A stretch of DNA of 64,000 nucleotides from a virus. The position numbers and the translations under genes are program-made. Shown here in pieces: positions 10,285 to 63,696 of this stretch. A model generated the notes under the pieces. The model was not told the DNA's origin. It ran no database searches and saw only the letters and a program-made list of their open reading frames with translations. The stretch is taken from IMG/VR virus record IMGVR_UViG_3300002835_000018. The stretch is one strand, 5' to 3'. Each line of letters begins with the position of its first letter. The first letter of the stretch is position 1.

Positions 10285-10479
10285 ATGAATACGCCACAAA
10301 AGATAGAGACAGAATTAAGAATAGTTGCTCACGGAGATATTTTAACTCCAATTGAGCCAGATCCTTCTGAGGATGAAGCATTAATTAGGATAGTCGCAAA
10401 CACTAGTTCTTTGGAAACTAAAACAAATGATCTATCCTCACGGACTGACGGAAAAGCAAGTGATGACGGCAATGGATAA
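10285..10479 (+). CDS. Hypothetical protein
   Basis: 64 aa; AGGAG RBS. Confidence 0.6.
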   Translation: MNTPQKIETELRIVAHGDILTPIEPDPSEDEALIRIVANTSSLETKTNDLSSRTDGKASDDGNG

Positions 10480-39000: not shown

Positions 39001-39404
39001 CAACGGTAAGTCCAACAACGACTACTTCTGCACCAGTTACTACAACTACTACAACATTAGCCCCAAATATAAATTCAATAAAATATAATTCTGGAGAAAC
39101 CTTAGAATTAAGGGCTACTGATGATTACTACGATGTAGATGGAAGAGCTATAGATTTTATATCTAATGATTATCCAGTATTAAATAACATAACAATTTTA
39201 TTTTTTGTAGATGGCAAAATAAATTTTGTAAAAACTTGTTTAGCTATAAATGCAACCACAATTAGATTAGAACTTGACCATCTTGAATTATCTGCTATTG
39301 GTGCTGGAAGATGGTCTTACGAAATAAGAGCAGTTTTTCTAAGTGGACATATTGTGACATTGGCTATTGGTAATTTAATTATAACTCCTGCTTTTGGAGA
39401 TTAA
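36069..39404 (+). CDS. Cys-rich / Thr-rich mucin-like surface protein with a C-terminal Ig-like (BppU-N-like) domain
   Basis: Repeated D/N..NCG.CG..C units (Stig1-like); four poly-Thr tracts; C-terminal domain paralogous to the next gene. Confidence 0.75.
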   Translation: MPNCIDPLSLGINPSYEGEIFLFGDCSYTAIEKDGSLNWETNEELKVYGDFSTCTSSSCSWTWNLGYGEPGYFTSWRKTSSCPQDGTCLCSYEGFPSFNGTENQVVSYPCIYPTTTQEPTTSTSSTTSTSSTTGTSSTTGTSSTTGTSSTTGTPLTSEPPDPTTPQPTTTNTTTTTTTTSNPCAPGEWNCSGYCRPKDRYNCSGCGDACLEAPFEDCCPNLTGGGLSCTDLLSNNNNCGGCGIICAEGEVCCYGNCITLGTNENCASCGDSVPEGTVCCDLNNDGIYGSISLDYWNLGNPGSSDDNNCGSCGNVCVAPYRCKDGVCTETTTCFGGCTWEWLGPGGYWYQLSDCNPSCICDSPTDDGTEFYEFFESPCYSFVTTTSEPTTTTSAPTTTTTTASPTTTTTTTTTDSPTTTTTTSAPTTTTTTDSPTTTTTTTTTSAPTTTTTTDSPTTTTTTTTTSAPTTTTTTDSPTTTTTTTTTSAPTTTTTTDSPTTTTTTSAPTTTTTTASPTTTTTTASPTTTTTSAPTTTTTTASPTTTTTTTTTTTTTTNPDPCYGVFCGFEPGWDCCGGNCYNIFGVDQMICCDGQLVSGRSGSTCGSCENACPSGQDCCTQNGDVFTNYCADLESDPLNCGSCGSYCASPSVCCQGQCLPDPSLVTSFQKCCNGTIIDFKDDTNNCGDCGIVCGAGEACCNGICIDILSDKYNCGSCGYNCPPESYPDCVNGVCVTASTTTTTTTTTTTTTTTTTTTTSTTSNPQCDYSLAHWVDPNNFDQDEIPPKTSFTIGISETLELKFRVRDIYQVNINSENFSTVTQWPWYPLPSPENTYGIYEKVNNQYALMEFVTTGTIGSKFYLLNEQEYPCVSDNFAYYKFISPPVGTYVINFYMNDGSSFALTIDVIEGTTTTTDPNTTTTTTTTAAPTTTTTASPTTTTTSTTASPTTTTTTTTTASPTTTTIAPTTTTTTTTSPTTTTTTVSPTTTTSAPVTTTTTTLAPNINSIKYNSGETLELRATDDYYDVDGRAIDFISNDYPVLNNITILFFVDGKINFVKTCLAINATTIRLELDHLELSAIGAGRWSYEIRAVFLSGHIVTLAIGNLIITPAFGD
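36429..36520 (+). repeat. 18-bp tandem repeat (T[G/S]TSST) x5
   Basis: ACTRGTACTTCTTCTACC units. Confidence 0.85.
37210..37730 (+). repeat. Thr-rich tandem repeat with a 63-bp core period (T9SAP-T6DSP)
   Basis: Near-identical 63-bp units at about 37320-37600. Confidence 0.9.
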
Positions 39405-47427: not shown

Positions 47428-47811
47428 ATGGATGTTGAAAAACAAATGCAGGATGCGTTAAGATTAAGTCAGGAGGAAAATGAAAAGGGTAAAAAAAAAT
47501 ATCAATCAGATTCAAGAGCTAGGCTTTTTAAAATTACTAGCACAAAAGTTAGGACTGCCTTTATTGGTGCGTTATCTTCTTTTGAGCAAAATTTTGGAGA
47601 GCTTTGGGGGCATCGCTTGCCAGAAAGTGAACTGACAGATGAACAGTTAGAATGGAAGCAATTATGGGAAGAATGTAGAACGGCAGTACTCAACAACGGT
47701 AATCATCAAATAAGAGCAGTAGAAAATGAGATGGGCCAGTATGCGATTTCTTGGAATAGACACCAGACTTTTCTAAAAACAAAGGAGGACAAAGATGAGT
47801 GTCAACGATAA
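47428..47811 (+). CDS. Hypothetical protein
   Basis: 127 aa; AAGGAG RBS. Confidence 0.7.
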   Translation: MDVEKQMQDALRLSQEENEKGKKKYQSDSRARLFKITSTKVRTAFIGALSSFEQNFGELWGHRLPESELTDEQLEWKQLWEECRTAVLNNGNHQIRAVENEMGQYAISWNRHQTFLKTKEDKDECQR

Positions 47812-48658
47812 CAAGAAGGTTTTTAAGGTAACTCTTGATAGCAAAGAGATGGAATTGTGCGTAATTCGCCCTAATGTCAAACAACGACAAGAAGGGCAAA
47901 AGACATACAATAAGGCATTTCGGGATGCAGTCGAATCAGGTGCTATCCTTCGTGCTAAAGTAAACAATGTGATGCGAGAGCAGAACTTGTGGGATGACAA
48001 TAAGGAAGCTCAGTATAAAAAATTAATTGAAAAAATTAATTCTAATGAAAGAAAGATCAAGTCTGGCGGTATTAAACTGTCTGAGGCAAAGGACTTAGCC
48101 CTTCAAATGAAGAAAGACAGGGCTGAACTTAGGTCGCTTACATCTGAGCGTTCTTCGTTAGATTCAAATACTGCTGAAGGTCAAGCAGATAATGCACAAT
48201 TCAATTACTGGGTTAGTGCTTGTACGGTGTATTCAGATACGGGTAAAACTTATTATGCTAGTTATGAAGACTATCTAAATAGGGATGATGACCCAGTAAC
48301 TAATCCAGCAGCAAGTAACCTAGCGTTGATGCTGTATAACCTTGATCCAGACTACGAAAAAAAGCTTCCAGAGAATGAATTTCTTAAGAAGTACAAGTTT
48401 GTAGATCAAGACTTGAATTTTGTTAATAAAAGTGGCCACAGGGTTGATTCCGAAGGAAGATTAGTCAACAAAGATGGCAGATATATCAATGAAAAAGATG
48501 AACTAATTGATATTCATGGCAATCTGGTTGATGAAAAAGGGGAGTATATTGTTGAATTTACTCCATTCTTGGATGATGAAGGCAAGCCCTTGGCTGAAAA
48601 AGCTGAAAAGGTTCAAGCGGTTGAACCTGTTGAAAAGAAAGATATCGAAAGTAAGTAA
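47795..48658 (+). CDS. Probable tail assembly chaperone
   Basis: Directly upstream of the TMP; coiled coil; 7-aa (V/I)(D/N)xxGxx repeats near the C-terminus. Confidence 0.45.
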   Translation: MSVNDNKKVFKVTLDSKEMELCVIRPNVKQRQEGQKTYNKAFRDAVESGAILRAKVNNVMREQNLWDDNKEAQYKKLIEKINSNERKIKSGGIKLSEAKDLALQMKKDRAELRSLTSERSSLDSNTAEGQADNAQFNYWVSACTVYSDTGKTYYASYEDYLNRDDDPVTNPAASNLALMLYNLDPDYEKKLPENEFLKKYKFVDQDLNFVNKSGHRVDSEGRLVNKDGRYINEKDELIDIHGNLVDEKGEYIVEFTPFLDDEGKPLAEKAEKVQAVEPVEKKDIESK

Positions 48659-48741: not shown

Positions 48742-51700
48742 ATGGCTTTTAATTTAACGGCACAGTTGAGTGTAGCATTAAATACGGCATCTTTAAAAAA
48801 TGCTGCTAACACTATCAATAGTCAATTGAAAGATGTTGGTGCAGTATCTTTGGGTATACCAAAAAATGATGCAGATAATTTAAGATATATTAAAGTGCAA
48901 GCAGCAGAAGCTAGTACTGCTATGGAACAGTTTGGTAGACAGTCAGGTTTAGCTGCTAAAAGATTTGTTGCTTTTACACTTACTGCTGGAGCTATTATCA
49001 CTTTTACATCTTCTCTAAAGCAAGCATTAACTGCTGCTGTAGAGTTTGATCGTGAAATGGTTAGATTGACTCAGGTTTCTACAGACAGTGTTGGACAAGT
49101 TGGTGCTGTAGGTAATGAAGTAAGTAGACTGTCAAAGAATTATGGCGTTTCCAGCAAAGACCTGCTTACAACGGCAGTGACATTAAAACAAGCTAACTTA
49201 AGTTTAGCAGACACTAAGGTTGCACTTGAAGCATTGGCTCAAGCTGCATTAGCCCCAAGCTTTGACAACCTGAGAGATACTACCGAAGGTGCTATTGCGG
49301 TTATGAATCAGTTTGGCATAAGTGCAAAAGACTTGGGTAATGCTCTCGGTGCAATCAATGCTGTTGCTGCTGAATTTGCTGTTGAAGCTCAAGACTTAAT
49401 TGAAGGTGTTCGTAAAGCTGGTGGTGCTTTTAAATCTGCTGGCGGTGACTTAAATGAATTTTTAGCATTATTCACATCAATTAGGCAAACAACTAGAGAA
49501 AGTGCAGAAAGTATTGGTACTGGCCTTAGAACTATATTTACTAGGGTACAGCGTAATGAAACTGTTGAAGCACTTAAGGATATTGGCGTACAGCTAAGAT
49601 ATACGGCAGACGAAGCTAGGGCTGCTGGCGATTTGGGTCTTGCAAATCAATTTGTTGGACCATATGAGGCTGTTAAAAGGCTTTCTGGTGCTCTTAATGA
49701 GCTTAGATCTACTGATCCAAGGTTTAGTGCCATTATCGAAGAACTTGGTGGATATAGGCAGATCTCCAAGGTTATACCACTTATTCAAGAATTTGGTGTC
49801 GCACAGAAAGCTTTAGGTATCGCCCAAATAGGTGGTGCTTCTCTTGCTCTAAATGCTGCACAAGCACAAGAGGCTTTTGGCGTAAAAATACAAAAGGTTA
49901 AAGAAGAATTTGCAGATTTTATTAGAAATCTTACCAATACATCTTCGTTTAGATCGCTCATAGATTTACTTCTTGGTGCTGCTTCTGCTGGTATTGCACT
50001 TGCTGATTCTTTAAAAGGAATTTTGCCAGTTATAACTGCTATTGCAGCAGTGAAGACGGTTCAAAGTTTAACTAGTTTTACAAAGGGTTTTGCTAGTACG
50101 GCTTTTGCTCCTGCACCAGCAAGTCAACCAAGTACTTTTTCTCCATTTTTGCCAACTGGGGGAAGAAAAGCTTCTGGTGGAATAATTAAAATGGCAAAGG
50201 GTGGAATTGTACCAGGAGTTGGTAGGGGAGATAAGGTTCCTGCATTGTTAGAACCTGGTGAGTTGGTTATTCCAAGAAATCGTTTTGATATGGGTGGAAA
50301 AGTATTAGATGTTATTAAAGAAACTGGTAAAACATCATTAAATGATTTATATGATCCAGAATTAGATGCGTATAAATTTATTGGACAAATAAAAAGAAAT
50401 AAATTAGGCAAATATGATAAATATAGAAAAGATTCGGAAAGAATGTTAAACGCTGGAAAAAATGTTTATGAAAATGAAATGGCTAATCCTAAATCAACTC
50501 CACAAAAAGCTGTTGAAAAAGCTAATTCTGCTGTTACAAAAGCTTTTGGAAGAAAGGTTGTGGGTGGAAGAGATAATTTTTTAGGTCAACTTGGGGAAAA
50601 TTATTTTAAGGTTAAAATCGGAGAAGGTAGTCAAAGTCAATACAATCAAATTGCTGGAGCTTTAGGCGAAGCCGATACTGCTAAAAAATTAAGAAGAAAT
50701 CCACAAACATCTAATTATGTAAAACTTCCAAATCAACAAGGAATGGATTTTATAGGTGACGATAAGTTAATTGAAACAAAGGTAACGAAAAATCAAGTTC
50801 CAGACATAGAAATTATAGCCAAGGCATTATTATATGAGGGAAAACTTGCTAATATAAATCCAAAAAGTTCTTATAAAAATCAAAGAGATGATTCAATTAA
50901 TTTATCTAATTTATCAGTATACGAATCATTTGAAAAAAAATTAGCTCTTGGAGGTTTAGTTCCAGGCGTTGGTAACACTGATAGTGTTCCATTAGATTTG
51001 CCAATTGGTTCTTATGTAATTAAAAAATCTTCAGTTAATAGCATAGGTGCTTCAAACTTATCTCGACTTGGAAGGGCTAGTGGTGGGGTTATTCCATCGT
51101 TGGTTATGCCAGGAGAATACATTTATACTCCAGATGAAACAAAGAAAATTGGAGTTCCTAACTTAGACCATATGAATACGACTGGCAGAAAGAAATTTGC
51201 TAGGGGTGGTTATGGCAGTTTAACAAAAGAAGAAATAAAAATTGCAAAACAGGTTGAAGGACAACTTAGGATACCAACAAATAAAGCAGAAAAAAGACAG
51301 AACAGACAAGAAGCAATAGCTGTTGCAGAAGATGTTACCAATACAACTAAACAAGTAAAAGCACTTGAACCTATTTATAAACAGCAAGCTAATAAGGTTG
51401 CTCAAGGTCAAAAAAATGAGGAAAACATAAATGCTGCAAGAGCAGAAATTCTAAAAACAATGGAAGAAAGAAAGGGAATATTAAAAGATGTTAAAGCAAA
51501 AGAACAAGAAGAAAGAGATATTCAAGCTAGACACATATCAAACGCTAAAGCTAAAGAGCAAGAAATTAGAGGTCTTGAAACTCAAAAAAGAGGTGTTGCT
51601 GTTGGAAGTAGAGAAGAAAAAGCAATTGATAAAAAGATACAAGCTGCAACAAGAGTTAAAACAAACTATGAAAACTTAGCAGCTAATAAGCAAGCAAGTA

Positions 51701-54700
51701 TTGATGCTGCTGCTTCAACAACAGCAGAAGCACAAAAAAATGTTGGTCAAAGTGTAAACAATTTAAAACAAGTAAATCAAAGTGCTGCTAGAAATAAAGC
51801 ATTCGTTGATCAGGCACAAAAAGATCTGGAAAAAACAGGATCAGAAATTAATGCATTAAAGAACAAATATAAAGATAATCCAGATGGAAATATTACAAAA
51901 GATGGAAAAGTAATAACATCAACTTATGGCGATGCTTATAAAAAAGAAATAAGGAAAGAACTTTCTAATTATAAAAAACTTTATGGCGAAGAAGCAACTG
52001 GTGGCACTCGTAAAGAAATTAGAGAAAATACTGCTCAAAGATTGAAGGCTGGTTATTTTAATCAAATAAAATCTTTTTCTGAAGCAAAAGGTTTAGAATT
52101 TGATGAAAAGTTTGCAAATAAGCAAGCTCAACAAATGGCTAGGGAAACCGTTGCTGGAAGAAGAAAGTTTGAAGTTTCATCTAAGGGCGAATTTTATGAT
52201 CCAGTTTTGGCCAATAGGTTAAAAACACAAGGTTATACAGAAACAGGTCAAAAGAAAATACTCAGAAAAGTTACTGATTTTGGAAAAGGTCTTGTTTCAA
52301 AAGAAGGTCTTCAAAATAGTTCTTTTGCTGTTAGTAGCGGTATTGGTCTTATAGCTTCAGCAGTAGGTCCACAAGCAGAAGATTATAAAAAGGCTGTTGC
52401 TGGTGGAGCAGAAGGTGAAAGCATAGTAAAGGCTGGTGCTGGAATTTCTGGTGGTTTAACAGGTGCTGCTACTGGATTGGCGATTGGAAGTTTTGCTGGT
52501 CCTTTTGGTATGGCTGTTGGTGCATTGATTGGTGGATTTACTGGTATAGTATCAGGTTTAACTGATGCTAAAAAACAAATCTCAAGCATAAAATTAGAAG
52601 AAGCTGGCAATAAGTTGAAAAATGCTTTTGAAGTTGCTGCTGCATCATTTGGAAAAATATCACAAGAAAATCTTAATGAAATTACAACCCTTCAATCAAA
52701 AATTGATGACGAAATTTCAACAAAAAGTGCAGCTTCTACTACCTTTTTTAGTAGAAAAAGTTATGCAAGTCAAGAAGCAACAAATACTGCTGTAGAAAGA
52801 AGAAATCAATATGCTGCACAAGCTGGTGGTATAAATGCCCTTTTGTCAAAACAACTTCAAGAGGATATAAAAAGTTCGCCTGTTGTTAGAGATGAGCAGG
52901 GAAAAAGAAAACCATATGAAATTGAAGGGTTTTTTAAAGATAGTGCAAACATAAGTCAGATTGCAAGATTGGCAATTGGTTTAGATCAACCAATAAGTAA
53001 GATTAAAAAACAGCTTGAAACATTTGCAAAAGATTTTGAGAAACAACAAAATGCTGCTAAAAGTCAAGCACAAGCAATTGAGGGGGCACAAAAATTAAGT
53101 ATAGCATTTTCTCTTATTGCTGATGCTTCAACTAATGCTGCTAATACGCTCAACAATTTAACACCAGCTTTTCAAACTATAACTGATTCACTATCTTCAA
53201 ATTTTTCAGTATCGCAAAAACAAAAAATATCAAATGAAATTCAATTGCCTTCCATAGACCCAACTGGGTTTAAGACTAATTTAAAAAATATTACTGGCGG
53301 TCTTGGTTCATCGGGAGAAAATCTACAATCTTCTGGAACAGTATTGGCAGAAATGTCTTCAATACTCCCCAATATTCTTGCGAATATAAGACCAAATGAT
53401 ATGGGTGGTGGTAAAGATCCACAATCAGCATTGCGTAGTGCTTTGACTCAACAATTAAAAGGTGTTGGTGGTCTTGATGAAACCCAAATACAAAGCTATG
53501 TAAATTCAGTCGTTGGAAAAATGGGTGAAGACTTTACAAAAATGCTTTCAGAGTCTGGTGGCGATTATAATGAACTTGCAAAAAAATTAATGTCAAATGT
53601 TTCTGATCCATTCTTAAATGCTTTTAAAACCATAACGGTTAACTTAGAAAAAGCAGCAGACACATATGTTGCTGGAATAAATAAATTAGTTCAAGCAACG
53701 CTTACAACTGTGCAGGAATTTGATAAGCTTTCAAAAATTCAACAGCAAACAAGAAATATTAGGACAAATATAGCTATTGAAGATGAGGTAAAAAGACAAA
53801 AAAAAGCAAGACCATTTTCTGATGTGAATGAAAATGTAATAGGTTTGAATATGACAAATGTGGCAGATCAAACTCAAGCATTTAGAGAACAACAGGCTAG
53901 ATTAGCTGGCGTTAATGTAAATGGTCAACAATTGACACCAGATGAAATACAAGCAAAAATAGAGCAAAATAGAGCCAGAACAGAACAGGCACAAACAAAA
54001 CAAAACAATTCAAAATTAACTGCTACAGAAGGCAGGGGCGATTATGTTGAAGCAACAAATGAATTAGGTAGATTAAAAGTAGAGGCTTCTCTTCTTAACC
54101 AAGCTATGAAAAATCTTGCTGATTCAACCGAAGAGATTTCTGCGATTGAGCAAAGGGTTGGAAAAATAAGACAAGAAATAGCAAAAGAAGAACAAGATAA
54201 TGCAAGAAAACAATCTGAAACAGAAAACAAAGGTGAAAAATTATTAACATCGTCACCAGAACAATTGCAAAGGCTTCAAGCTGGAAGTCAATTAGCAAAT
54301 GTAGCAAAATCAATTGGTGGAAATCTTTTGAGGTTTAATGTTGAACAAAGAAAAGCTATTTTTGAATATTTAGATTTTTCTGGAGATGAAGGCAAAAAAT
54401 TAAAATCTCAATTTTTACAAGCAAGTGGTTTTGTTTCTAAACCAGAAACAGCAATGCAAGATAAGTTTGGTCCACAATTAGCACAATTAAATCAACAGCT
54501 TCTTGCAGTAATGGCGGTAAGAGAACAGGCACAGATAAATATAATAAAAGATCAGCAAACTTTGCAGGGAGAATTTTTTACAAAACTATCTGCACAAAAT
54601 GAAGTTTTCTTTACAAGACTAGGGCAACAATTGTTAATGCCACAAGTGGCTCAACAACAGCAGATTCAATTAGAAAGCAATGCAAAATTAGTAGATATGA

Positions 54701-57700
54701 AAGCTTCAGAAAAGTCTGTTGCATTATTTAATCCATTAGATGCACTTGCTATACAAAATAAAGAGGTTGGTGGTGGTCAAGCTTATTACAACAATAAGAT
54801 AAGGCCAAAAACCAAAGACATAACTTCTTTCTTGCTTGCTGAAGAAGAAAGAAAAAAGATAGCAGAATTACAACCAGGGGTTGGAAAAGATAGTACAGCT
54901 ATAGCAATTAACGCTTTGGCTGGCGGTAATCTTGCTGCTAAGTTACCATCGGCACTTGCTCAAAATAAAGCTGTTCAAACTGCCAATATTGACTTAGGCA
55001 AACTATCTGAAGAAATACAAGCTGCTAATAAAGGTGGTACAGATTCTACACAATTAGCATCAATAATAACTGCTGCTATTGGTAAGAGGCTTGCTACTCT
55101 TCGAGCAGAACAAGAACAAGTTCAAGGAAATTTAGCTGGATCATTAGGTCTTAAAATTACTACTGATCAAAAAGGCAATAGAGATATAGCTAAAGATCAA
55201 GATCCTACTAAGGGTGGTGTTGGTGGTTTTGTAACAGATTTAATTAAAAATAATGTTACTGGTGCTGCTTTTACACAAGCTACTGAAGATGTAAAAAGGC
55301 TTGGCAATGTTATTGGCACACAATTTACTGCTCAAATGGGTATTCTTGAAGCACAAACAACAGCAGCAACAACACAAATAGCAGCATTAAATATTCAAAT
55401 AGCAGCTTTAGGAAAACCAAAACCTCCAGTACCAAATGCTCAAAATGTAAATGCTATTGCACCACCACAAGTGGCAAATCCACCAGTTGCACAAAACAAT
55501 CTTGTTAGACCACAAGGTATACCATTTGCACCAGCGAGATTAAGCACTGGCGGTATGGTAACCCATTCTTCTGCGATAGTTGGTGCAGATCCAAAAGTAT
55601 TTAAGCCAATAGGTCCAGATACAATACCAGCTATGTTGAATGATGGCGAATATGTGGTTAACGCAAAAGCAACATCTGAAAATCTTCCTTTGCTACAAGC
55701 CTTAAATGGCGGTGGAACAGTTAAACCTACAAAAGCAATGAATGATGGCGGTGCTGTTAAATATTTGGCTGGCGGTGCTTTTGTTGGTGGTCCTGCTGGT
55801 GCTGGTGTTGCTGTTAATGCAGTTGAATTAAAAAGAATTATAGATGATGAAAGACAAAGAAGGGTTGATCTTGCTATATTACAAAAATTTGGAAACCTTA
55901 GAGGTTCTTGGAGAAGAAATGCTTTAAATAACTCTTTGAGAATACAAGCTGGAGATAGTAATCTTACGAATATTCCTTATCAGGGTGGACAGTTTATTGC
56001 AAGTGCAATAGTTTCTCCTGCGTTTGATGAACCTTGGACTCCAATTAAAGATATAACAACCGCAGGGTTAAAAACAAATAATTTAAATCCGCAACAAAAA
56101 GAAGCTTTAAATAAAAAAGCTATATTTGGAATGCCATTAAATATTAAACCAGTTCATTATCAGTGGATTACTGGAATTACAGACAAGTACATTCGTGGTG
56201 ATTTAACACAACAACAAAAAAACACTAATATTAATGCTAATCAAAGTGTTTTTGATGTAACAGCAAAAGATGCACAAGGAAATAGCAAAGAATATTATAG
56301 AAGAAGGGCAAAATTAGACCCATTTTTTCAAGGCTTATTAGTATATGGTGCTCCAGTACAGTTTGGAGAAAATAAAAAATTTAGTGATACATTTGGATTT
56401 GATCTTGCGGATGAAAATTTTCCAGTGTTAGGTTTTTCTAAGGGCGGTCAAGCTGGTCGTAAAACTCCAGCTATGGTTCAATCTGGAGAATTTATTGTTG
56501 GTGCAGATAAAGCTAAAAAGAATAAGGGTCTTTTAGATCATATGAATGGCGGGGGTAAGGTTAGTTATTTAAGCTTGGGAGGTATGAGTGAAGCAGATGA
56601 GTTTATGAGAAATTCATCTAAACCAGGTGTTCAAAACATATTACAAACTTTTAGGAATAATGATAGTGGTCCAGGTAATCTTAAAATTAAAAGGATGGAC
56701 CCACTTAACACAACTGGCGTAGCAACAAGGGGCACTGAATATCTTTTAGAAAGAGCAAGACACTACCTTGGAGAACGAATAGCTAATCAATTTTCAAGAA
56801 TTTTAAGTAAACCAGCAGAAGATGTTGGACCAGATAGAAGAGTTATGAAAAAAATGCAGATGTTTCAAGATATTCTGCCTACATTAGAAAAAAATCCAGA
56901 ACAACTTGAGAGCACAAGAGGGTTTTACAATATAAAAAGAGACACAGCAGTAACTTTAATACGAGGTGAAGCTGGACCAGTCCAGCCCCAATCGTCACGA
57001 AAAACCACTAGGCATGAATTTGGTGGTCATGCTCTTACATATGCTGCTGAAAAACCTGGAGCCAAGCTTAAAAATTCAATATTTGGATCTCTTGGATTAG
57101 ACACGCTTGAGAACTTGTTTAAACCAACAAGAACAGTTGCTGAAACACACGCTAGAATTGTTGAAGAAAAAAGTCCAGCAGCTTCATTAAAAAGAATGAT
57201 AAGTTTTTTATCTAATCAAAAAGCAGCCAATGCTTATGGTGCTAACCCAATTTTAGGTAAAGATGCATTAGGATTTCATGCACAAGCCCTTAAAGATTTA
57301 CAAGGAAATAAAGGTCAGATTCCAATAGATGGTCTTTTATCAGGGGCTGGTAAAGGTAAAGAGGCAGAACTTTTTAAAGAATTTTTGACAAGAGCAGGTA
57401 AAAAAACATCATCCATAAGTGAAGTAGCTGGTAAGTCCTACATTAATGCAAAAGCATTTGTTGGTGCTGGTCTTTTAAATCCTAAAAAATCTATAGGTGC
57501 AGGATTAGTTGCAGCAGCATCTTTATTTGGTTCTACTGGAAAATCATATGGACAAGAAGCAATTAAAGCCAAAGATAGTGATTCAATTGTAATACCAGGA
57601 TATGAATCAACAGAAGAACAAATAAAAGCTGATAACGATTTGAAAGCTATACAAGCAAATGAAAAGTTTTGGGAAAATGCTATTATGGCAGGGTATATTG

Positions 57701-60700
57701 CTTCTCCTTTTGCTGCTGTTGGTACTGTTGCTTTAGCATCAAGATATAGAACTAATCAAAAAATAGCTGGTTTATTTCCAGATGATGTAGATGCTCAAAA
57801 AAAATATAGGAAAGGAAGTGCAGCCGACAGAATGATAATGATTAAAAATTTAAAGTATACCGAAGAAGGAAAAAGTTTAGTAAAAACATATGAGTCTTTT
57901 ATAAAAGACACAACTAATAAAGGTATAGTTACTAGAAATGTACCATTTGCTGGATTTTTTGGTCGTCTTGGTAAAGGTATTGGTAAGTTTGGCGTAAATA
58001 CTGTCAAGGGTATTGGTAATATTGTTGGCGATTTTAACAGTGGTGAGCTTCAGTCAAATATTATAAAAAGTATTGGTATTGGCAAATCAGACGAAATACC
58101 AATGAATAAAGCTGGTGGAGTAGATTGGGGTAAAAATATTCCAACCAATCAAATAGAAGCTAGTATAAAAAGTCCAGATACCACTCCACAAATGAGGGCT
58201 GTTTTACAAAAAATATTGGATGAAAGAGCAGGAAAACCAACTTCAGAAGTTTCAACAAATCCAGTTGTTTCAGAAACATCAAATAATCCTATTAAAGTTG
58301 AAAAAGTAATTAATGATCTTTCTAATTTTGAACGAAATAAAAATGTTTCAATGAAACAAATAAAAGATTTAAATTTAAGCGACCTTAAAAAAATATATGA
58401 AAATAAAAATCTTCCTAAAAAATATAGAGAACAAGCACAAACAGAAAGATTTAATAGAATTGTAAACGATAAAACAAATAATAATATTGCTGCAAACAAG
58501 CAAGATTTTGTAAATGAATTTAAAAAATTAAGTCCGCTTGATCAAAACAGATTTGTAACTATGTATGAGGCAGATCAGTTAACAGCACCATTAGATTCAG
58601 AAATACCAAAACCAAAAACAAACGAAGCAAAACCAGTTGTAATAGAAAAACCAATTAAAAATAGTACCAATAATAATATTTACGAATTTTTAAAGAGTAA
58701 AAAAGTTCCAGAAAACATAATAAAAGCCACACTTAAAAAAACCTCAAGATTTTTAGAAAGTCCTATTGCACAACCAATAACTAAAAAAATTGCATTGGAT
58801 ATTGCCAATGACATAAAAACAAGAATGGTTACTGCTTCACAAAAATCTACAGAGGGTAAACCTAATGAGTTACAACTTTCAAAAGAAAAGTATAAGGCAG
58901 ATGCCAACAAGTTTTTACAAAATGAATTGGATGCTAGATATGGTGAAAGAAAATTAATTTCTAAAAATGGGCTTAAACCTCTTAAATTAACTAGAGAAAC
59001 ACCAATTCCTGGTAATGTAATAGCGGAAATTCAATCCAGAAACCCTTATCTTTTAGCAAATCAGATTTACAACGCAAGAGAAAATGCTGCCACTGCTAAT
59101 TTTAGAACAGAAGGATTATCAGTAGAACAAATTCAAGCTAAAAAAATAGAATATGCTAAAAGAGCAGCCATTTTTCGAAACATAAAAAGTGCAGAACAAC
59201 AAAGAGCAATATCGCTTGCTCAAGCAAGAGAGGTCATTAGATTAGAAAATATAGCTTTACAAGAAGTAGAAGGTTTTAAAAGAGCAGAAGGTGCAAGAAA
59301 AAGAATAGAAAATGCTAATAAAGAAATAGAAAGACAAAACGCAGCAAAAAATAAAAATGTAATTGGAATAAAACCAGATGGTGAAGTAAAAGCTGGAAAA
59401 GTTCAAGTGAAAGTGGAAAAAAAAGTTCGGGATGTATTTAATATAAAACCAGATGAAGTAAAAGCCGAAAAAAATCTTGGCATTCCTAAAGAAATTCCAA
59501 AAGAGATATATGGTTTAAAACCAGATCCAGTAAAAACAGATATAACAAATAAAACTGAACCAAGCAAAGTACCACCAAAAGTTGATGTAACAACAGGCAA
59601 TAAACCAAATCTAAATGATGCAGGAAAAGGAACAGTTGTTCCAACAACAACAGAGGGAAGAACTGGTGTTCAACCAAGCAAAGTACCACCATCAGAATTA
59701 GTTGGACCACTACCACCAACACCAGAACAAATAGCAGCAGAAGCAGCAGCAAAAGCTGAAACAGCAAAAGCAACTGAAGCAGCTAAAGCAGAACCAGCAG
59801 CAAAAAACAATGCACCTGTTGAAGCACCAAAAACTGTTAGACAAATTTTAGAAAAAAACGGTGTCACTCCAAGTGAAATGGCTCAAGTACAAAATCAATT
59901 TCCAGATATTGCAAAAGGTAGAAAAATTAATGAAATAATGAAAGCTGTCCAACGAGTAAGAGAAAAAAATAAAGCAAGTTTTGTGGAAACAAACAATCAA
60001 CTAATTAGAGCAAACAATAACTCTAAAACTATAATTGGCAATAGTTCAAAATTCAATATGATCGATGGTGGAAAAACAATACAAAAATATGGCACTTATG
60101 CACAAATAGCATTGCCACTCGTTAAAACATCAATTGTTGATTATATGAATGGTGTTGATCCAAGTGAAATTAAGAAAAAGTTGGGTGCAGAAGCATTAAC
60201 TTCAGCAGCACTTATACCTCTGTTTGAAGGTCTTACAAGAATACCAAAAGTAGCTCCATTTGCTGGACCTTTAGGATTAGCATTTCTGCCTCAAACAGCT
60301 ACTGACTTAGAAAAAATAGGAACGGCTCTGACCACTAACAAAAATCAAGGTCAAATTAAATCTGTTGTTGAAAATTATGGAACAGTTTTTCCAGAAATTG
60401 CAAATCTATACGACAAGAAAAAATATGAAAGTTCAAGTTTAATACTTGGAGAAAGCGATGCTGATACAACACTTGCTGGACAAGGAGCTTCTTATCTTGG
60501 AACAATAGCTGCTGGAGCACTTGCTGGAAGTGCTATTCCTATTCCTGGTGGCACATTACTTGGTGGTGCAGCCGGATTTTTAATTGCTTCTTATAAATTT
60601 TTAAGAGATACATATGCTAGAAATTTAAAACTAAGAAAAAACGATGAGGCTAAAACACTAAGAAAGTATTTACAACCAAGGTTTGATGCTAGAGGTATGG

Positions 60701-63696
60701 GTTCCGACAATGCTGCTTTTTTTGATGACAAGGATGATACATTATACACAAAATTACTCAAAGAAAACCCATCTTTGTTTTTCAACAACTTTTCTGATGA
60801 AATTGAATCTTATGGAATAGTAACGGATAGGAGATATGGAGATTTAAAAAATCAAAGATATCTTAATGAAAACCCCTATACATCAATAGAAGATGCAATA
60901 CTTTTTGAAAAGTTAAAAGATGACAAAGGCAAAGGCGAGAGAGGAATGCCAGAGTCGTTTATCTCAGAAATAACTCCTTTGCAAAAAAGTGGGGCAAGTG
61001 AAGGACAACTTAATAAAATCAGAGAAAAATATGAATCAAAAAATGCAGCCACAGATTTCATTTTGAAAAAACTTGGAAAAGGTGATGTTGAAAAAATAAA
61101 CGACTATGATAAAAGTGCAATATTTGGAAGATTGTTTAAACAAGATAAAAACATATTAAATATTGAAGAGCTTGGACCAAAAATATTGTTTGACGATCAA
61201 AATGAACAAAAAATAGTAGAAATAGCAAAATCACTTGGTGTTAAGATGCCAGATGATCAAGAATATTCTATAAAAGATTTAAATACAAATTATGATGTTT
61301 TTAGAAAAAATTTAAAGCTAGAACAGTTGGCTCAAAATATAAAAACTACTGCAAATCTTGAAAACTTAGAAGGTCAAACAATATTAAGTGCAAGTGAAAA
61401 ACTAAAAAAACAAAAAGGTGGACTTTATGTATTACCAATTCAAAGAAGAAGACTTGATGACTATATAAATCAAACATATAAAGAAGTTTCTAATTTAATG
61501 GAACCAACTTATACAGTTGACGGATTAGAGGGAGCAGAACCAAGAAAAATAGATACAGATAAGGAAAAAAGAAAAAATTTACAAAAAAATATTGAAAACG
61601 AATTATTTAATGGGTCTTATGAGGAAGATGCAACAAAAACAGATTTGCTAAATTATGTTAAATTAATGAAAAATATAAATCAGAAAAAATATTATAAAGA
61701 TAGAAATTATGGTGTGGAAGAAATAAAATATGCTGGCCTATTGCCACAATATCAAAATATTGAAATTGAAAAAAGACAAAAAGAAAATGCTTTAATATTA
61801 GAACAATTTAGCAAAGACTTTGGTAAAAAACTTACTGCAATAGTTCCATTCTTCAACAACAATTTATTCAACACAAAATTTGATGCATTGCAATATAGTT
61901 CTAATGATGGAAATGTACAAACCAAAGAGGACTTCTTTAAATATGATAAAGATAAAATAAAAAAAGATTTAAATATTCCAGAGAAAGAAGAAGTGGTTTC
62001 AAAAAACATATATGACTATTTTGAAAAAAACAAGAGTATAAAATACAATTGGATTGGTGCTAAAGAAAATAATTTAGATCAACCAATAGCTATGGCCTCT
62101 GGCGGTATTGTTCCAAGCAGTGCTCCAAACCCTGACCCATCCTTCTTTGTCGCAAAGGGCAGTGATACTGTACCAGCAATACTATCTCCTGGTGAGTATG
62201 TAGTTAATGCTAGGGCAACTGCTGCTAATCTCCCTCTCTTGCAAAATCTTAACAGTGGTGGGGCGGTAAAGTACTTATATCGTGGTGGTGATCTTCAAGC
62301 TATAAACCCATACTATGCTAGGCTTTCTGGACAATCTCCAGGCAGAGGATACATTAACTCTCGTGGAAGACAAAGGACAGACTTTGATATAGGGGCACAG
62401 GGTTATTTAGCCTCTAAAAACTTTAACCCTAGAAGTAACGCAAACACTCTTAATAATTTGGCTAATTATGCAGCAGATAGATCAGGATTTTTAAACAAGC
62501 CAGGATATGGAAGATACACTTACAATAGTTTCTATGGACCAAAACACTCAAAAGAATTTGGTGGTGATGGCTATGGTTCTACTTCTTTTAGCGGTAGAAA
62601 TGCAATTCCTGATTATCTTGGTGGACTAAATGCGTTATCTGATTCTCGATATGGCTCACCAAAAATGGCTGGTGTTACAAAATTCGCACTCGAAGATTGG
62701 GCTTTCGAAGATATTCTTAACAATAGAGAAATTTCCAGAGGGCCAATTGGTGGTTATCAAATGTCCGATGTTGGAAGCAGATACATATCTGGATTAATTG
62801 GTGGACCACCCGCTGATAAAGTAAGTCTTAAAGACTATATGAATGAACTTGGTTTTAGTAAGGCTGGAAATCAAACATTCCAAGGCGTTAGTGCTAACAA
62901 AGCATTAGCAATGGGAAGCCTTGCTGATACTCCAGGAAGTAATGTGGGCATAGCTCAACAGGCAATATCTTCAATACAAACTAAAGGTTTAGGAAACCTA
63001 TCGGTAAACAATACAGATGTGGCAGCAGCTACAGCTTTAGATACTATTAAAAATGCAAGAATGTCGCACTATAATCAGCCAAGAAGATTTTTTGCCAACG
63101 GTGGCTCAACCACTGATACTCAACCAGCTATGTTAACACCAGGAGAGTTTGTTGTAAGTAAACCAGCAGTAGATAGAGTTGGAACTGCATTTTTAGATAG
63201 AGTAAACAATTATGCTAAAGGTGGAAAAGTTGGTTATTATCAAAATGGAACTGGTAGTTCTAATTCTGGAAGTGGACCAATTTTAGGTGTTGATTTTAAA
63301 ATACTTCAATCTGCATCCGAAAATTTACAAGGTGTAGCAGGACTTGTGAGTTCGGCTGTAATACAATTAGGAACATCTTTTGGACAAGCTGCTGGTACAA
63401 TAACATCATCAATGTCATTAATTGATAAAGTTGGATCACTAATGAATAGCTCATCATCAGCAATGTACTCTAGTAGTCTTGCTTTTGAAAGAGCAGTCAA
63501 CAATCTAGCATCTGCACTAGATCGTGTACCAAAAACAATAAACTTGGCTATTGCACCATTATCATTGAATGTAAGCTTTAATACCCCAAGCGTACTAGCA
63601 GCAATACAACAATCATTGTCTGGTATAACAACTAATGTTGCAGGAATGATTCGTTCAGCAATTGAAGACAACAATAATGATCAAATGAGGGCATAA
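48742..63696 (+). CDS. Giant tape measure protein (4,984 aa) with repeated modules and embedded enzyme-like domains
   Basis: TP901-type core at the N-terminus (AVEFDREMVRLTQVS...RESAESIGTGLRTIFTR); G/A-rich TM-like segments; position after the tail chaperones. Confidence 0.9.
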   Translation: MAFNLTAQLSVALNTASLKNAANTINSQLKDVGAVSLGIPKNDADNLRYIKVQAAEASTAMEQFGRQSGLAAKRFVAFTLTAGAIITFTSSLKQALTAAVEFDREMVRLTQVSTDSVGQVGAVGNEVSRLSKNYGVSSKDLLTTAVTLKQANLSLADTKVALEALAQAALAPSFDNLRDTTEGAIAVMNQFGISAKDLGNALGAINAVAAEFAVEAQDLIEGVRKAGGAFKSAGGDLNEFLALFTSIRQTTRESAESIGTGLRTIFTRVQRNETVEALKDIGVQLRYTADEARAAGDLGLANQFVGPYEAVKRLSGALNELRSTDPRFSAIIEELGGYRQISKVIPLIQEFGVAQKALGIAQIGGASLALNAAQAQEAFGVKIQKVKEEFADFIRNLTNTSSFRSLIDLLLGAASAGIALADSLKGILPVITAIAAVKTVQSLTSFTKGFASTAFAPAPASQPSTFSPFLPTGGRKASGGIIKMAKGGIVPGVGRGDKVPALLEPGELVIPRNRFDMGGKVLDVIKETGKTSLNDLYDPELDAYKFIGQIKRNKLGKYDKYRKDSERMLNAGKNVYENEMANPKSTPQKAVEKANSAVTKAFGRKVVGGRDNFLGQLGENYFKVKIGEGSQSQYNQIAGALGEADTAKKLRRNPQTSNYVKLPNQQGMDFIGDDKLIETKVTKNQVPDIEIIAKALLYEGKLANINPKSSYKNQRDDSINLSNLSVYESFEKKLALGGLVPGVGNTDSVPLDLPIGSYVIKKSSVNSIGASNLSRLGRASGGVIPSLVMPGEYIYTPDETKKIGVPNLDHMNTTGRKKFARGGYGSLTKEEIKIAKQVEGQLRIPTNKAEKRQNRQEAIAVAEDVTNTTKQVKALEPIYKQQANKVAQGQKNEENINAARAEILKTMEERKGILKDVKAKEQEERDIQARHISNAKAKEQEIRGLETQKRGVAVGSREEKAIDKKIQAATRVKTNYENLAANKQASIDAAASTTAEAQKNVGQSVNNLKQVNQSAARNKAFVDQAQKDLEKTGSEINALKNKYKDNPDGNITKDGKVITSTYGDAYKKEIRKELSNYKKLYGEEATGGTRKEIRENTAQRLKAGYFNQIKSFSEAKGLEFDEKFANKQAQQMARETVAGRRKFEVSSKGEFYDPVLANRLKTQGYTETGQKKILRKVTDFGKGLVSKEGLQNSSFAVSSGIGLIASAVGPQAEDYKKAVAGGAEGESIVKAGAGISGGLTGAATGLAIGSFAGPFGMAVGALIGGFTGIVSGLTDAKKQISSIKLEEAGNKLKNAFEVAAASFGKISQENLNEITTLQSKIDDEISTKSAASTTFFSRKSYASQEATNTAVERRNQYAAQAGGINALLSKQLQEDIKSSPVVRDEQGKRKPYEIEGFFKDSANISQIARLAIGLDQPISKIKKQLETFAKDFEKQQNAAKSQAQAIEGAQKLSIAFSLIADASTNAANTLNNLTPAFQTITDSLSSNFSVSQKQKISNEIQLPSIDPTGFKTNLKNITGGLGSSGENLQSSGTVLAEMSSILPNILANIRPNDMGGGKDPQSALRSALTQQLKGVGGLDETQIQSYVNSVVGKMGEDFTKMLSESGGDYNELAKKLMSNVSDPFLNAFKTITVNLEKAADTYVAGINKLVQATLTTVQEFDKLSKIQQQTRNIRTNIAIEDEVKRQKKARPFSDVNENVIGLNMTNVADQTQAFREQQARLAGVNVNGQQLTPDEIQAKIEQNRARTEQAQTKQNNSKLTATEGRGDYVEATNELGRLKVEASLLNQAMKNLADSTEEISAIEQRVGKIRQEIAKEEQDNARKQSETENKGEKLLTSSPEQLQRLQAGSQLANVAKSIGGNLLRFNVEQRKAIFEYLDFSGDEGKKLKSQFLQASGFVSKPETAMQDKFGPQLAQLNQQLLAVMAVREQAQINIIKDQQTLQGEFFTKLSAQNEVFFTRLGQQLLMPQVAQQQQIQLESNAKLVDMKASEKSVALFNPLDALAIQNKEVGGGQAYYNNKIRPKTKDITSFLLAEEERKKIAELQPGVGKDSTAIAINALAGGNLAAKLPSALAQNKAVQTANIDLGKLSEEIQAANKGGTDSTQLASIITAAIGKRLATLRAEQEQVQGNLAGSLGLKITTDQKGNRDIAKDQDPTKGGVGGFVTDLIKNNVTGAAFTQATEDVKRLGNVIGTQFTAQMGILEAQTTAATTQIAALNIQIAALGKPKPPVPNAQNVNAIAPPQVANPPVAQNNLVRPQGIPFAPARLSTGGMVTHSSAIVGADPKVFKPIGPDTIPAMLNDGEYVVNAKATSENLPLLQALNGGGTVKPTKAMNDGGAVKYLAGGAFVGGPAGAGVAVNAVELKRIIDDERQRRVDLAILQKFGNLRGSWRRNALNNSLRIQAGDSNLTNIPYQGGQFIASAIVSPAFDEPWTPIKDITTAGLKTNNLNPQQKEALNKKAIFGMPLNIKPVHYQWITGITDKYIRGDLTQQQKNTNINANQSVFDVTAKDAQGNSKEYYRRRAKLDPFFQGLLVYGAPVQFGENKKFSDTFGFDLADENFPVLGFSKGGQAGRKTPAMVQSGEFIVGADKAKKNKGLLDHMNGGGKVSYLSLGGMSEADEFMRNSSKPGVQNILQTFRNNDSGPGNLKIKRMDPLNTTGVATRGTEYLLERARHYLGERIANQFSRILSKPAEDVGPDRRVMKKMQMFQDILPTLEKNPEQLESTRGFYNIKRDTAVTLIRGEAGPVQPQSSRKTTRHEFGGHALTYAAEKPGAKLKNSIFGSLGLDTLENLFKPTRTVAETHARIVEEKSPAASLKRMISFLSNQKAANAYGANPILGKDALGFHAQALKDLQGNKGQIPIDGLLSGAGKGKEAELFKEFLTRAGKKTSSISEVAGKSYINAKAFVGAGLLNPKKSIGAGLVAAASLFGSTGKSYGQEAIKAKDSDSIVIPGYESTEEQIKADNDLKAIQANEKFWENAIMAGYIASPFAAVGTVALASRYRTNQKIAGLFPDDVDAQKKYRKGSAADRMIMIKNLKYTEEGKSLVKTYESFIKDTTNKGIVTRNVPFAGFFGRLGKGIGKFGVNTVKGIGNIVGDFNSGELQSNIIKSIGIGKSDEIPMNKAGGVDWGKNIPTNQIEASIKSPDTTPQMRAVLQKILDERAGKPTSEVSTNPVVSETSNNPIKVEKVINDLSNFERNKNVSMKQIKDLNLSDLKKIYENKNLPKKYREQAQTERFNRIVNDKTNNNIAANKQDFVNEFKKLSPLDQNRFVTMYEADQLTAPLDSEIPKPKTNEAKPVVIEKPIKNSTNNNIYEFLKSKKVPENIIKATLKKTSRFLESPIAQPITKKIALDIANDIKTRMVTASQKSTEGKPNELQLSKEKYKADANKFLQNELDARYGERKLISKNGLKPLKLTRETPIPGNVIAEIQSRNPYLLANQIYNARENAATANFRTEGLSVEQIQAKKIEYAKRAAIFRNIKSAEQQRAISLAQAREVIRLENIALQEVEGFKRAEGARKRIENANKEIERQNAAKNKNVIGIKPDGEVKAGKVQVKVEKKVRDVFNIKPDEVKAEKNLGIPKEIPKEIYGLKPDPVKTDITNKTEPSKVPPKVDVTTGNKPNLNDAGKGTVVPTTTEGRTGVQPSKVPPSELVGPLPPTPEQIAAEAAAKAETAKATEAAKAEPAAKNNAPVEAPKTVRQILEKNGVTPSEMAQVQNQFPDIAKGRKINEIMKAVQRVREKNKASFVETNNQLIRANNNSKTIIGNSSKFNMIDGGKTIQKYGTYAQIALPLVKTSIVDYMNGVDPSEIKKKLGAEALTSAALIPLFEGLTRIPKVAPFAGPLGLAFLPQTATDLEKIGTALTTNKNQGQIKSVVENYGTVFPEIANLYDKKKYESSSLILGESDADTTLAGQGASYLGTIAAGALAGSAIPIPGGTLLGGAAGFLIASYKFLRDTYARNLKLRKNDEAKTLRKYLQPRFDARGMGSDNAAFFDDKDDTLYTKLLKENPSLFFNNFSDEIESYGIVTDRRYGDLKNQRYLNENPYTSIEDAILFEKLKDDKGKGERGMPESFISEITPLQKSGASEGQLNKIREKYESKNAATDFILKKLGKGDVEKINDYDKSAIFGRLFKQDKNILNIEELGPKILFDDQNEQKIVEIAKSLGVKMPDDQEYSIKDLNTNYDVFRKNLKLEQLAQNIKTTANLENLEGQTILSASEKLKKQKGGLYVLPIQRRRLDDYINQTYKEVSNLMEPTYTVDGLEGAEPRKIDTDKEKRKNLQKNIENELFNGSYEEDATKTDLLNYVKLMKNINQKKYYKDRNYGVEEIKYAGLLPQYQNIEIEKRQKENALILEQFSKDFGKKLTAIVPFFNNNLFNTKFDALQYSSNDGNVQTKEDFFKYDKDKIKKDLNIPEKEEVVSKNIYDYFEKNKSIKYNWIGAKENNLDQPIAMASGGIVPSSAPNPDPSFFVAKGSDTVPAILSPGEYVVNARATAANLPLLQNLNSGGAVKYLYRGGDLQAINPYYARLSGQSPGRGYINSRGRQRTDFDIGAQGYLASKNFNPRSNANTLNNLANYAADRSGFLNKPGYGRYTYNSFYGPKHSKEFGGDGYGSTSFSGRNAIPDYLGGLNALSDSRYGSPKMAGVTKFALEDWAFEDILNNREISRGPIGGYQMSDVGSRYISGLIGGPPADKVSLKDYMNELGFSKAGNQTFQGVSANKALAMGSLADTPGSNVGIAQQAISSIQTKGLGNLSVNNTDVAAATALDTIKNARMSHYNQPRRFFANGGSTTDTQPAMLTPGEFVVSKPAVDRVGTAFLDRVNNYAKGGKVGYYQNGTGSSNSGSGPILGVDFKILQSASENLQGVAGLVSSAVIQLGTSFGQAAGTITSSMSLIDKVGSLMNSSSSAMYSSSLAFERAVNNLASALDRVPKTINLAIAPLSLNVSFNTPSVLAAIQQSLSGITTNVAGMIRSAIEDNNNDQMRA

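Follow-up and report, generated by a model that had tools for sequence, protein, structure and literature searches.

The subject of this study is a tape measure protein (TMP) of 4,984 amino acids (aa), encoded on the plus strand at positions 48742..63696 of a 64,000-nucleotide (nt) stretch of viral DNA from the IMG/VR virus record IMGVR_UViG_3300002835_000018; this entire stretch is referred to as the window. We found that the protein combines a TMP core with seven copies of a conserved joint module, which delimit slots of mutually unrelated content. Sequence comparison with relatives supports the view that the joints mark exchange boundaries and that related phages swap slot contents by recombination at these sites. 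Overall, the best explanation of our data is that the open reading frame (ORF) encodes, in all probability, a genuine TMP and that it belongs to an uncultured siphovirus whose genome measures about 125 kb.

The ORF is open throughout and comprises 4,984 codons plus stop. Its first 469 aa (48742..50148) constitute a TP901-type TMP core, which is matched by PF10145 (PhageMin_Tail; aa 126-337, E 4e-24, 86 bits compared to a cut-off of 33.2), by TIGR01760 (aa 87-298, 77.3 bits compared to a cut-off of 28.8), and by the PHROG TMP families 4211 (phrog_4211, aa 20-393), 167, and 28. A first-pass annotation of the window had proposed a TMP of 4,984 aa with a core of about 470 aa, and the uninterrupted frame and the profile matches to the N-terminus bear this out. 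The core is common to at least 1,499 shorter and 146 longer proteins. No close isolated phage was found; the core is just ~24% identical to the cores in SPbeta, Lactococcus phage 949, and Bacillus phage Basilisk. The sequence source is metagenomic and repeated modules might in principle misguide an assembler, so that the giant ORF could be an assembly chimera or represent several genes fused by sequencing errors. We consider such an artefact highly improbable, however. The same TMP is present with identical sequence on a 124,923-bp metagenomic contig, and three member sequences carry the identical protein. A full-length relative (89% identical protein, DNA 99-100% identical over most of the gene) is located on a separate contig, and further relatives of 40-80% identity, in which the parts follow one another in the same order, come from independent contigs of other samples and data sources. 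Because the identical protein and full-length relatives recur on independent contigs, the TMP is not an assembly artefact. In addition, the frame stays open over 14,952 nt in a genome of 35% G+C, and the module copies share just 65-75% DNA identity with one another and lack long exact repeats, which also indicates that the modules are old and retained by protein-level selection. The protein does not contain a single cysteine among its 4,984 residues.

In order to define the joint module, we built a profile hidden Markov model (HMM) from the TMP family and tested the strict pattern P[AS]x[LVIM]xxGE against 5,000 shuffles. The family profile identified seven modules of 50-85 aa each (i-Evalues 6e-7 to 2e-23), which coincide with all seven positions listed in the first-pass annotation. 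The strict pattern occurs six times (aa 500, 785, 2296, 2576, 4478, and 4795) compared to 0.04 occurrences expected. The annotation had also counted about 15 flanking xGG motifs; we counted 14 of the form [AS]xGG, compared to 5.8 ± 2.4 in shuffles, an enrichment that is real but modest. The module runs from [FYLM]-A/S-x-GG through G-x-D-[ST]-[VI]-P-A-x-L-x-P-G-E-[FY]-V-[VI] to L-L-x-x-[LM]-N-x-GG, often followed by another xGG, and the GG pairs that flank each copy at both ends are invariant; the consensus of the joint has [FY]A-x-GG and L-L-x-x-[LI]-N-x-GG at these two ends. In the low-confidence AlphaFold models, GE[FY]V[VI] forms a short strand, after which come two short helices. Pfam, NCBIfam, and PHROG models gave no match to the modules of the window TMP.

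All seven copies lie, like the rest of the gene, on the plus strand. Module 1 (aa 475-522, 50164..50307; ASGG..AKGGIVPGVGRGDKVPALLEPGELVIP) scores 34.8 bits with the family HMM (E 1e-10). Module 2 (aa 719-783, 50896..51090, 22.6 bits) is degenerate, with GS in place of GE, and forms a tandem with module 3 (aa 778-836, 51073..51249, 47.7 bits); the sequence of this tandem (50896..51249) is nearly invariant among 15 relatives. Further downstream, module 4 (aa 2261-2348, 55522..55785, 70.7 bits, E 9e-22) and module 5 (aa 2561-2619, 56422..56598, 49.7 bits) are followed by module 6 (aa 4443-4520, 62068..62301, 70.4 bits), which is almost invariant in the 15 relatives, and by module 7 (aa 4774-4844, 63061..63273, 76.1 bits, E 2e-23).

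The comparison with these 15 close relatives revealed mean identities of 92% in the core and 71-87% in the modules, which are the best conserved parts of the TMP after the core, compared to 22% in the content of the first slot (slot A) and 22-25% in the cassettes D1-D3 of segment D. A replacement of slot A is seen in the relative P0003. Its DNA is 99-100% identical over most of the TMP gene, but aa ~519-734 reach just 43-52% nt identity, where slot A is occupied by an unrelated sequence that is 26 aa shorter. This swap opens directly behind ...PGELVIPR-x-RF-xx-GG, with which module 1 ends, and closes directly before ALGGLVPGVG, with which module 2 starts. In the relative P0007, nt identity rises in the modules to 88-95%, with high third-position identity, compared to 40-60% around these islands, which suggests that the joints, besides being conserved, are also shared through recombination. 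BLAST alignments to many relatives stop at aa 519-540, 726-735, 2609-2628, and 4392-4450; with seven of them it ends at aa 2609-2628, by module 5. The D1 cassette is located after module 5 in the window TMP and between modules 1 and 2 (aa ~860-1010) in P0019, P0028, and P0029, and segment D is largely unalignable among relatives. The first-pass annotation had interpreted the modules as boundaries and had suggested comparing relatives for segment change at them. As far as exchange is concerned, this idea has held, since the slot A swap of P0003 is bounded by the GG that closes module 1 and by the ALGG at which module 2 starts, and since D1 moves between slots. The segments between the modules had, moreover, been described as unrelated to each other, in agreement with our finding that segments A, C, D1, D2, D4, D5, E, and B5 show a mutual hhalign probability of at most 2.1% in all 28 pairs. 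A single-linkage clustering of slot contents was discarded, as residual module flanks lumped nearly everything together.

With respect to the content of the slots, slot A (aa 519-734, 50296..50943) is an orphan cassette with a G-x-D-F ... E-x-K motif that is swapped in close relatives and kept in seven others (P0009, P0011, P0014, P0019-21, and P0086), down to 30% identity. The motif fits a PD-(D/E)xK nuclease at motif level alone, the segment being an orphan and its fold model unusable: an AlphaFold 2 model of aa 460-840 (13-row alignment) had a mean predicted local distance difference test score (pLDDT) of 48.6, and Foldseek detected no match to it in the PDB at E <=0.001. When the whole TMP was compared to PDB sequences with phmmer, the best match was just an SRA domain with an E value of 0.34. 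Segment C (aa 2349-2560, 55786..56421), located between modules 4 and 5, is rich in aromatic residues and without a family match; it is common to 14 relatives with a mean identity of 53%.

Segment D (aa 2620-4442, 56599..62067) is the most variable region of the protein, with a mean identity to relatives of 22-37%. It includes the zincin-like D1 cassette (aa ~2691-2860, 56812-57321), which displays the motif RHEFGGH...E...H. The motif is conserved in ten homologues at 27-41% identity, and the cassette is also found at L020:3093-3605 and L021:3069-3581. Six sequences, the window TMP included, have RHE(F/L)GGH and four the canonical (K)HExxH; a conserved Glu follows ~40 residues downstream of the motif, and a conserved His further on. 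The cassette has no Pfam match, and a four-sequence profile found no relative in the PDB. The motif of D1 looks like that of a zincin with a one-residue insertion (HExxxH), and the cassette could be a muralytic or a processing peptidase. An assignment of HEFGGH to a DPP-III-like family was rejected, as it is a one-residue-longer variant of the HExxH of homologues. Further downstream, a low-complexity stretch rich in Pro, Lys, Ala, and Glu (aa ~3540-3760) contains, at aa ~3540-3700 (nt 59350-59850), short direct repeats, among them PSKVPP twice and the repeat families D4 and D17, and resembles flexible linkers. We also noted an E3-binding (peripheral-subunit-binding) domain in the TMP of the relative P0038. 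The C-terminal part of segment D (aa 3751-4440, D4-D5) was predicted by AlphaFold 2 to be almost entirely helical, at low confidence. Segment E (aa 4521-4773, 62302..63060), between modules 6 and 7, is conserved at 71% within its clade and contains a predicted alpha/beta domain at aa ~4562-4665 (AlphaFold 2 pLDDT 53-75, moderate confidence); a search for look-alikes in the ESM Atlas gave a best score of 0.81, which is chance level.

Recognizable domains are found in the corresponding slots of relatives. ADP-ribosyltransferase domains (PF18760 ART-PolyVal and PF03496), all above the Pfam cut-offs, are located directly after module 1. In P0048, ART-PolyVal occupies aa 534-743 behind a module 1 at aa 454-498, and ADPrib_exo_Tox domains are present in P0054 (aa 600-749; module 1 at 517-581), P0090 (aa 657-806; module 1 at 523-582 and 575-624), and P0112 (aa 709-845; module 1 at 518-603). 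Overall, ART-PolyVal was found in the first slot of P0048, P0049, P0129, P0132, and P0133. Additionally, precomputed Pfam lists contain SNase, SHD1, and E3-binding domains in the TMPs of other relatives. Effector cargo is thus present in the form of domains in relatives, and, judging from the motifs described above, it is plausible for the window TMP.

Such an arrangement is reminiscent of polyvalent proteins, to which the first-pass annotation had compared the TMP. Like the TMP family, these are large and virion-borne, and unrelated conflict domains that are rapidly shuffled are joined in one chain (Iyer et al. 2017, PMC5512222). Zincin-like peptidase motifs are frequent in both groups, and ART-PolyVal, a domain defined in that paper, occurs in the first slot of relatives of the window TMP. 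In contrast to TMPs, polyvalent proteins are packaged in the head or transferred by conjugation and are not tail rulers, and no conserved joint has been described for them (PMC5512222); the paper does not mention TMPs (PMC5512222). Two or more recognized enzymatic or conflict domains, as are expected of a polyvalent protein, were not detected in the window TMP with Pfam, NCBIfam, PHROGs, or PDB, but shuffling of domains between relatives was evident from the slot A swap, segment D, and the moving D1 cassette. The proposed kinship therefore stands in part: the ADP-ribosyltransferases in the first slot of four relatives and the shuffling speak for it, whereas the window TMP itself has no recognized polyvalent domain.

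Alternatively, all 4,984 residues might do no more than set tail length. The variable segments would then be freely drifting and recombining spacers, and the joints structural elements of the ruler, for example register clamps for the three (or six) chains or docking sites for chaperones or the tube. This alternative agrees with the absence of a detectable enzyme family in the window TMP (Pfam, NCBIfam, PDB), with the predicted helical nature of D4-D5, and with the conservation of the modules, second only to that of the core. The number of modules furthermore scales with TMP length, roughly one per 800 aa, which is what register clamps would be expected to do, and giant TMPs go together with giant tails in which embedded domains count towards length (PMC10770324, PMC6293099, PMC1796659). 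However, the first slot of relatives contains bona fide ADP-ribosyltransferase domains, for which a mere spacer function makes no sense, and the HExxH/HExxxH...E and D...ExK motifs persist in their cassettes at 27-41% identity. Moreover, segment E contains a predicted alpha/beta domain, and the replacement of cassettes by unrelated sequence of other length would alter the ruler. We therefore regard a function restricted to length measurement as unlikely.

Several observations weigh against slots that are filled with folded cargo and exchanged precisely at the joints. A search of slot A against 1.84 billion representatives returned one weak match, to its first 57 residues, and the inter-module segments of the window TMP match no Pfam, NCBIfam, PHROG, or PDB family. 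Both AlphaFold models are of low confidence (pLDDT 48.6 and 41.8), so that folded cargo domains are not demonstrated here, apart from the stretch of moderate confidence in segment E. D4-D5 appear plainly helical; plain helical repeats without folded domains, which the first-pass annotation had named among the findings that would speak against its reading, thus describe a part of segment D, though not the family as a whole. In P0003, a second diverged block starts at aa ~4557, ~40 aa past module 6, and extends to the end of the protein. While 37% of the ends of long high-scoring segment pairs fall within the 8.9% of the TMP that the modules occupy, these ends and breakpoints are not independent events because the relatives share ancestry. 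Finally, the phage is known from sequence alone.

To place the window TMP in a wider context, we analyzed its family. A search for long relatives yielded 146 proteins of 2,742-7,135 aa, which have mainly the first ~10% of the query in common, and a search for shorter relatives yielded at least 1,499 proteins, mostly of 2,000-2,740 aa; overall, the family ranges from about 980 to 7,135 aa. All of the 121 giant relatives that were fetched carry between two and eight modules. In these proteins, the first module starts near aa 500, the last one ends at a median of 136 aa before the C-terminus, and the gaps between modules are bimodal, with lengths of 100-300 and 1,000-1,500 aa. The correlation between module number and TMP length is r = 0.78. 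The smallest complete members, P0230 (983 aa, on a 128-kb contig) and P0145 (1,077 aa), consist of the core, a module, a slot of ~250 aa, another module, and a C-terminus of ~130 aa. Beyond core and modules, about 50 of the 121 giant relatives also have aa 1300-2000 and the C-terminal 140 aa in common.

The remaining parts of the window TMP belong to this more widely conserved framework. Segment B (aa 837-2260, 51250..55521) is, according to composition and hydropathy, a charged backbone of helix type, of which aa 1300-2000 are conserved in about 52 of the 121 giant relatives. It contains a hydrophobic glycine-zipper stretch at aa 1236-1288 (nt 52447-52605) with a weak Pfam match of glycine-zipper type. 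Hydropathy peaks were located at aa 403-437, within the core, and at aa 1245-1274, 2980-2999, and 3931-3949, with the glycine-rich stretch at 1236-1288 enclosing the second of them; together with the predicted helices, these hydrophobic segments agree with a TMP of the TP901 type. The C-terminal tail (aa 4845-4984, 63274..63693) is a helical hairpin that is conserved in 48 relatives; AlphaFold 2 predicted aa 4845-4940 to be helical, at low confidence.

The module is not restricted to this family. A tblastn search with module 6 matched 96 phage records (Gordonia, Mycobacterium including TM4, Nodularia, Ralstonia, Brevundimonas, Pseudanabaena, and others), and all 40 listed rows that carry an annotation concern genes that are annotated as tape measure or minor tail subunit. 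The family HMM identified the module in lambda gpH (aa 717-798, E 1e-11), in TM4 gp17 (aa 699-780, E 1e-16), in Pan1 (aa 730-823 of 876, E 5e-23), and, as two tandem copies, in a Nodularia TMP of 3,312 aa. A profile of the seven window copies matched, among PDB sequences, Douge gp16 at 973-1011 and 1419-1459 (E 6e-8) as well as gpH at 719-793 (E 0.09). No match to the family module profile was obtained for T5 pb2 or P23-45 gp96. The module stretches are left unresolved in published structures, which show residues 1658-1699 of Douge gp16 (PMC13033339) and 818-842 of lambda gpH (PMC10721106). Judged by this distribution, the joint module is a general TMP motif that is without a name. Joints and slot exchange in TMPs were not described in the publications covered by our literature search.

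The window TMP can be compared with several TMPs of isolated phages. Lambda gpH carries one copy of the joint (aa 717-798), the match beginning 136 aa before the C-terminus; in the window family, a median of 136 aa separates the end of the last module from the C-terminus. As in the window TMP, a C-terminal helix follows the module, and in lambda it docks in the tail tip (818-842, PMC10721106). In contrast to the window TMP with its seven modules over 4,984 aa, gpH has 853 aa and one module, is without slots or embedded domains, and possesses an N-terminal core of another TMP family. The TMPs of the isolated Nodularia siphoviruses vB_NpeS-2AV2 (3,404 aa) and vB_NspS-kac65 (3,312 aa) contain two modules, but these form just one tandem pair near aa 900-1,100 and are combined with another TMP core. 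In Douge gp16, the same joint occurs twice (973-1011 and 1419-1459), and in TM4 gp17 the module at 699-780 is located directly N-terminal of the hydrolase motif mt3, which is centred on W853 (PMC1796659). Similar to what is proposed here, mt3 is an enzyme domain embedded in the ruler that counts towards tail length (PMC1796659). The TM4 and Douge TMPs differ from the window TMP in having one or two modules, a size of 1,229-1,699 aa, and one known class of cargo, peptidoglycan hydrolases.

The first-pass annotation had also concluded from the size of the protein that either the tail is extreme or much of the protein is cargo. This is probably a false choice, as giant TMPs go together with extreme tails and embedded domains count. 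Enzymes embedded in TMPs are known from TM4 (mt3), T5 (pb2C), and P23-45 (the virion RNA polymerase). With 5,002 aa, P23-45 gp96 is nearly equal in size to the window TMP, and the tail of this phage is about 800 nm long. Gp96 sets an extraordinarily long tail, and its N-terminal virion RNA polymerase transcribes the pre-early genes, such that a TMP with an extraordinarily long tail and a host-acting enzyme are combined in one protein (PMC10770324). Gp96 has, in addition, hydrophobic membrane segments and a metallopeptidase motif, comparable to the hydrophobic stretches and the putative zincin-like motif of the window TMP; it also has counterparts in P74-26, G20c, and TSP4. However, there is no detectable homology beyond a compositional match of glycine-rich hydrophobic sequence (blastp E 0.005), and gp96 lacks joint modules and carries its enzyme in a fixed N-terminal position, not in exchangeable slots; conversely, TMP P0001 is without the DxDxD motif. 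In the Nodularia phage 2AV2, a tail of 795 nm (PMC6293099, Table 1) and a module-containing TMP of 3,404 aa correspond to 0.23 nm per residue. When TM4 gp17 is deprived of its 114-aa mt3 motif, tail length drops from 200 to 180 nm (PMC1796659), which indicates that embedded domains count towards tail length. Extrapolating from the ratios in the published cases P23-45, 2AV2, and TM4, the tail of the window phage is probably about 0.75-1.2 µm long, with the whole chain setting its length. By a rough volume estimate, a fully packed trimer of 4,984 residues would occupy a 4-nm lumen over a length of at least 160 nm. It is thus physically conceivable that the arrangement is compact, but no published case supports this.

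How the content of the slots might be put to use can be approached from the fate of TMPs during infection. TMPs are ejected from the tail ahead of the DNA (PMC12617516, PMC13033339). Lambda gpH loses a C-terminal piece of ~14 kDa from a glycine-rich region, which yields gpH* and gpHC, the latter remaining in the virion; the site and the catalyst of this cut are undetermined (PMC12617516). From fragment masses, we calculated that a 14-kDa piece corresponds to a cut at about aa 710-721, which is GG-rich and lies at the N-terminal edge of the module at 717-798; a cut after FATGG (aa 737) would give 12.2 kDa. The first-pass annotation had proposed that the TMP is a processed polyprotein, with the joints or the flanking xGG as maturation cut sites that free effectors in the tail or on ejection. 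We consider this a tentative possibility. It is in accordance with the lambda cut and its calculated position, with the invariant GG pairs at both module ends, and with the P0003 swap, which opens right after GG and closes right before ALGG. The zincin-like cassette directly after module 5 could in addition act in cis, as has been proposed for polyvalent metallopeptidases (PMC5512222). However, the lambda position is derived from gel sizes alone. The TMPs of TM4 and Douge possess the module and are yet not reported to be cut at it, although for Douge just residues 1658-1699 are resolved (PMC13033339), and T5 pb2 is cleaved but has no module. Moreover, many relatives lack the HExxxH variant, which may be inactive, and a ruler that is cut inside the tube would need another means of staying in register. 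A general form of the idea, in which the joint is the TMP maturation site where gpH is cut and its two to eight copies turn giant TMPs into polyproteins that release exchanged effectors ahead of the DNA, appears doubtful to us at present. The effectors would in that case comprise ADP-ribosyltransferases, peptidases, and nuclease-like domains, which would be lineage-specific and rapidly exchanged.

Returning to joints as exchange boundaries, the window TMP most likely works as follows. A fixed backbone is provided by the TP901-type N-terminal core, the helical and hydrophobic middle, and the C-terminal helical hairpin, and the whole chain would set tail length, resulting in a very long tail. 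Seven joints interrupt this backbone and delimit slots of mutually unrelated content. In the window TMP, this content consists of orphan segments, of which two display enzyme-like motifs (D...ExK and the zincin-like HExxxH...E). From what TMPs do in general, the slot contents may reach the host envelope or cytoplasm as ready-made proteins.

The genomic context of the gene is that of a phage structural region, with a terminase-like gene (13245-15389), collagen-repeat fibres with Tail Collar domains, and a glycosyltransferase. The order of ORFs around the TMP gene would fit a tail module, in which tube and chaperone genes precede the TMP gene and distal tail and hub genes come after it. Upstream of the TMP gene, two ORFs (47428-47811 and 47795-48658) with an overlap of 17 nt occupy the place where tail assembly chaperones would be expected; they have no family match. 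A -1 frameshift of the lambda G/GT type between them is not evident, the second ORF being in the +1 frame with its own AGGAGG and ATG. Downstream, ORFs of 659, 427, 415, and 1,599 aa follow. None of the neighbours on either side matched a PHROG or Pfam tail family; just a weak Laminin_G_3 match was obtained. Among the putative fibre genes, 21809-30118 encodes a collagen-repeat protein of 2,769 aa with 28 Collagen-repeat matches, an N-terminal CBM_5_12, and a C-terminal Phage Tail Collar domain, and 30131-32515 a second one of 794 aa; the local G+C content at these genes reaches ~42% because of glycine codons. As fibres, the collagen-repeat proteins are very long, and this may suit a phage whose tail is very long. 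They are followed by three tandem paralogues of 227-236 aa (32937-33647, 33656-34339, and 34348-35031) with Tail Collar and Gp10_C-like domains and His/Thr-rich HTH-x repeats. Between the last two, identity is 64% and the upstream sequences are nearly the same; the three paralogues may be alternative receptor-binding tips. A protein of 1,111 aa (36069-39404) contains three Stig1-like cysteine-rich repeats (PF04885, E 4e-20). In addition, a GDP-mannose 4,6-dehydratase (11767-12816, E 1e-106) is encoded upstream of the terminase-like gene and a family-2 glycosyltransferase (41187-42974) among the tail genes, which hints that virion proteins are glycosylated or host sugars modified; 10427-11014 encodes a small sigma-70 region-2-like protein.

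Regarding the host, we found AGGAG, GGAGG, or AGGTG motifs resembling Shine-Dalgarno sequences 5-10 nt before most plus-strand starts between 10 and 64 kb. These argue against a Bacteroidota host, despite the labels 'Bacteroidota' and 'Sphingobacteriia' of metagenome-assembled genomes (MAGs) that contain some of the relatives. A single-protein scan of genome contigs gave no match that would indicate the host of the TMP. In a profile scan, relatives were found only on short MAG contigs from five unrelated lineages (Bacteriovoracaceae, Gemmataceae, Chitinophagia, Rickettsiales, and others), and these mixed labels are most likely binning noise.

Overall, our results bear on how giant TMPs may be built and used. 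Going by published cases, the 4,984-aa TMP predicts a tail that would be at or above the longest measured. To our knowledge, the cleavage site of gpH and the protease involved have been unknown since 1974; the joint gives a sequence handle on this question, as the module coincides with the cut region. The exchange of slot contents would also widen a finding of 2024, by which a host-acting enzyme in a TMP had been shown for the Thermus phage P23-45 only. More generally, in a large uncultured family, of which at least 1,600 proteins were found, the ruler appears to serve as a rack whose standard joints hold different domains, among them ADP-ribosyltransferases in relatives. Such a tail-borne delivery route for phage proteins would stand beside that of the head-packaged polyvalent proteins.

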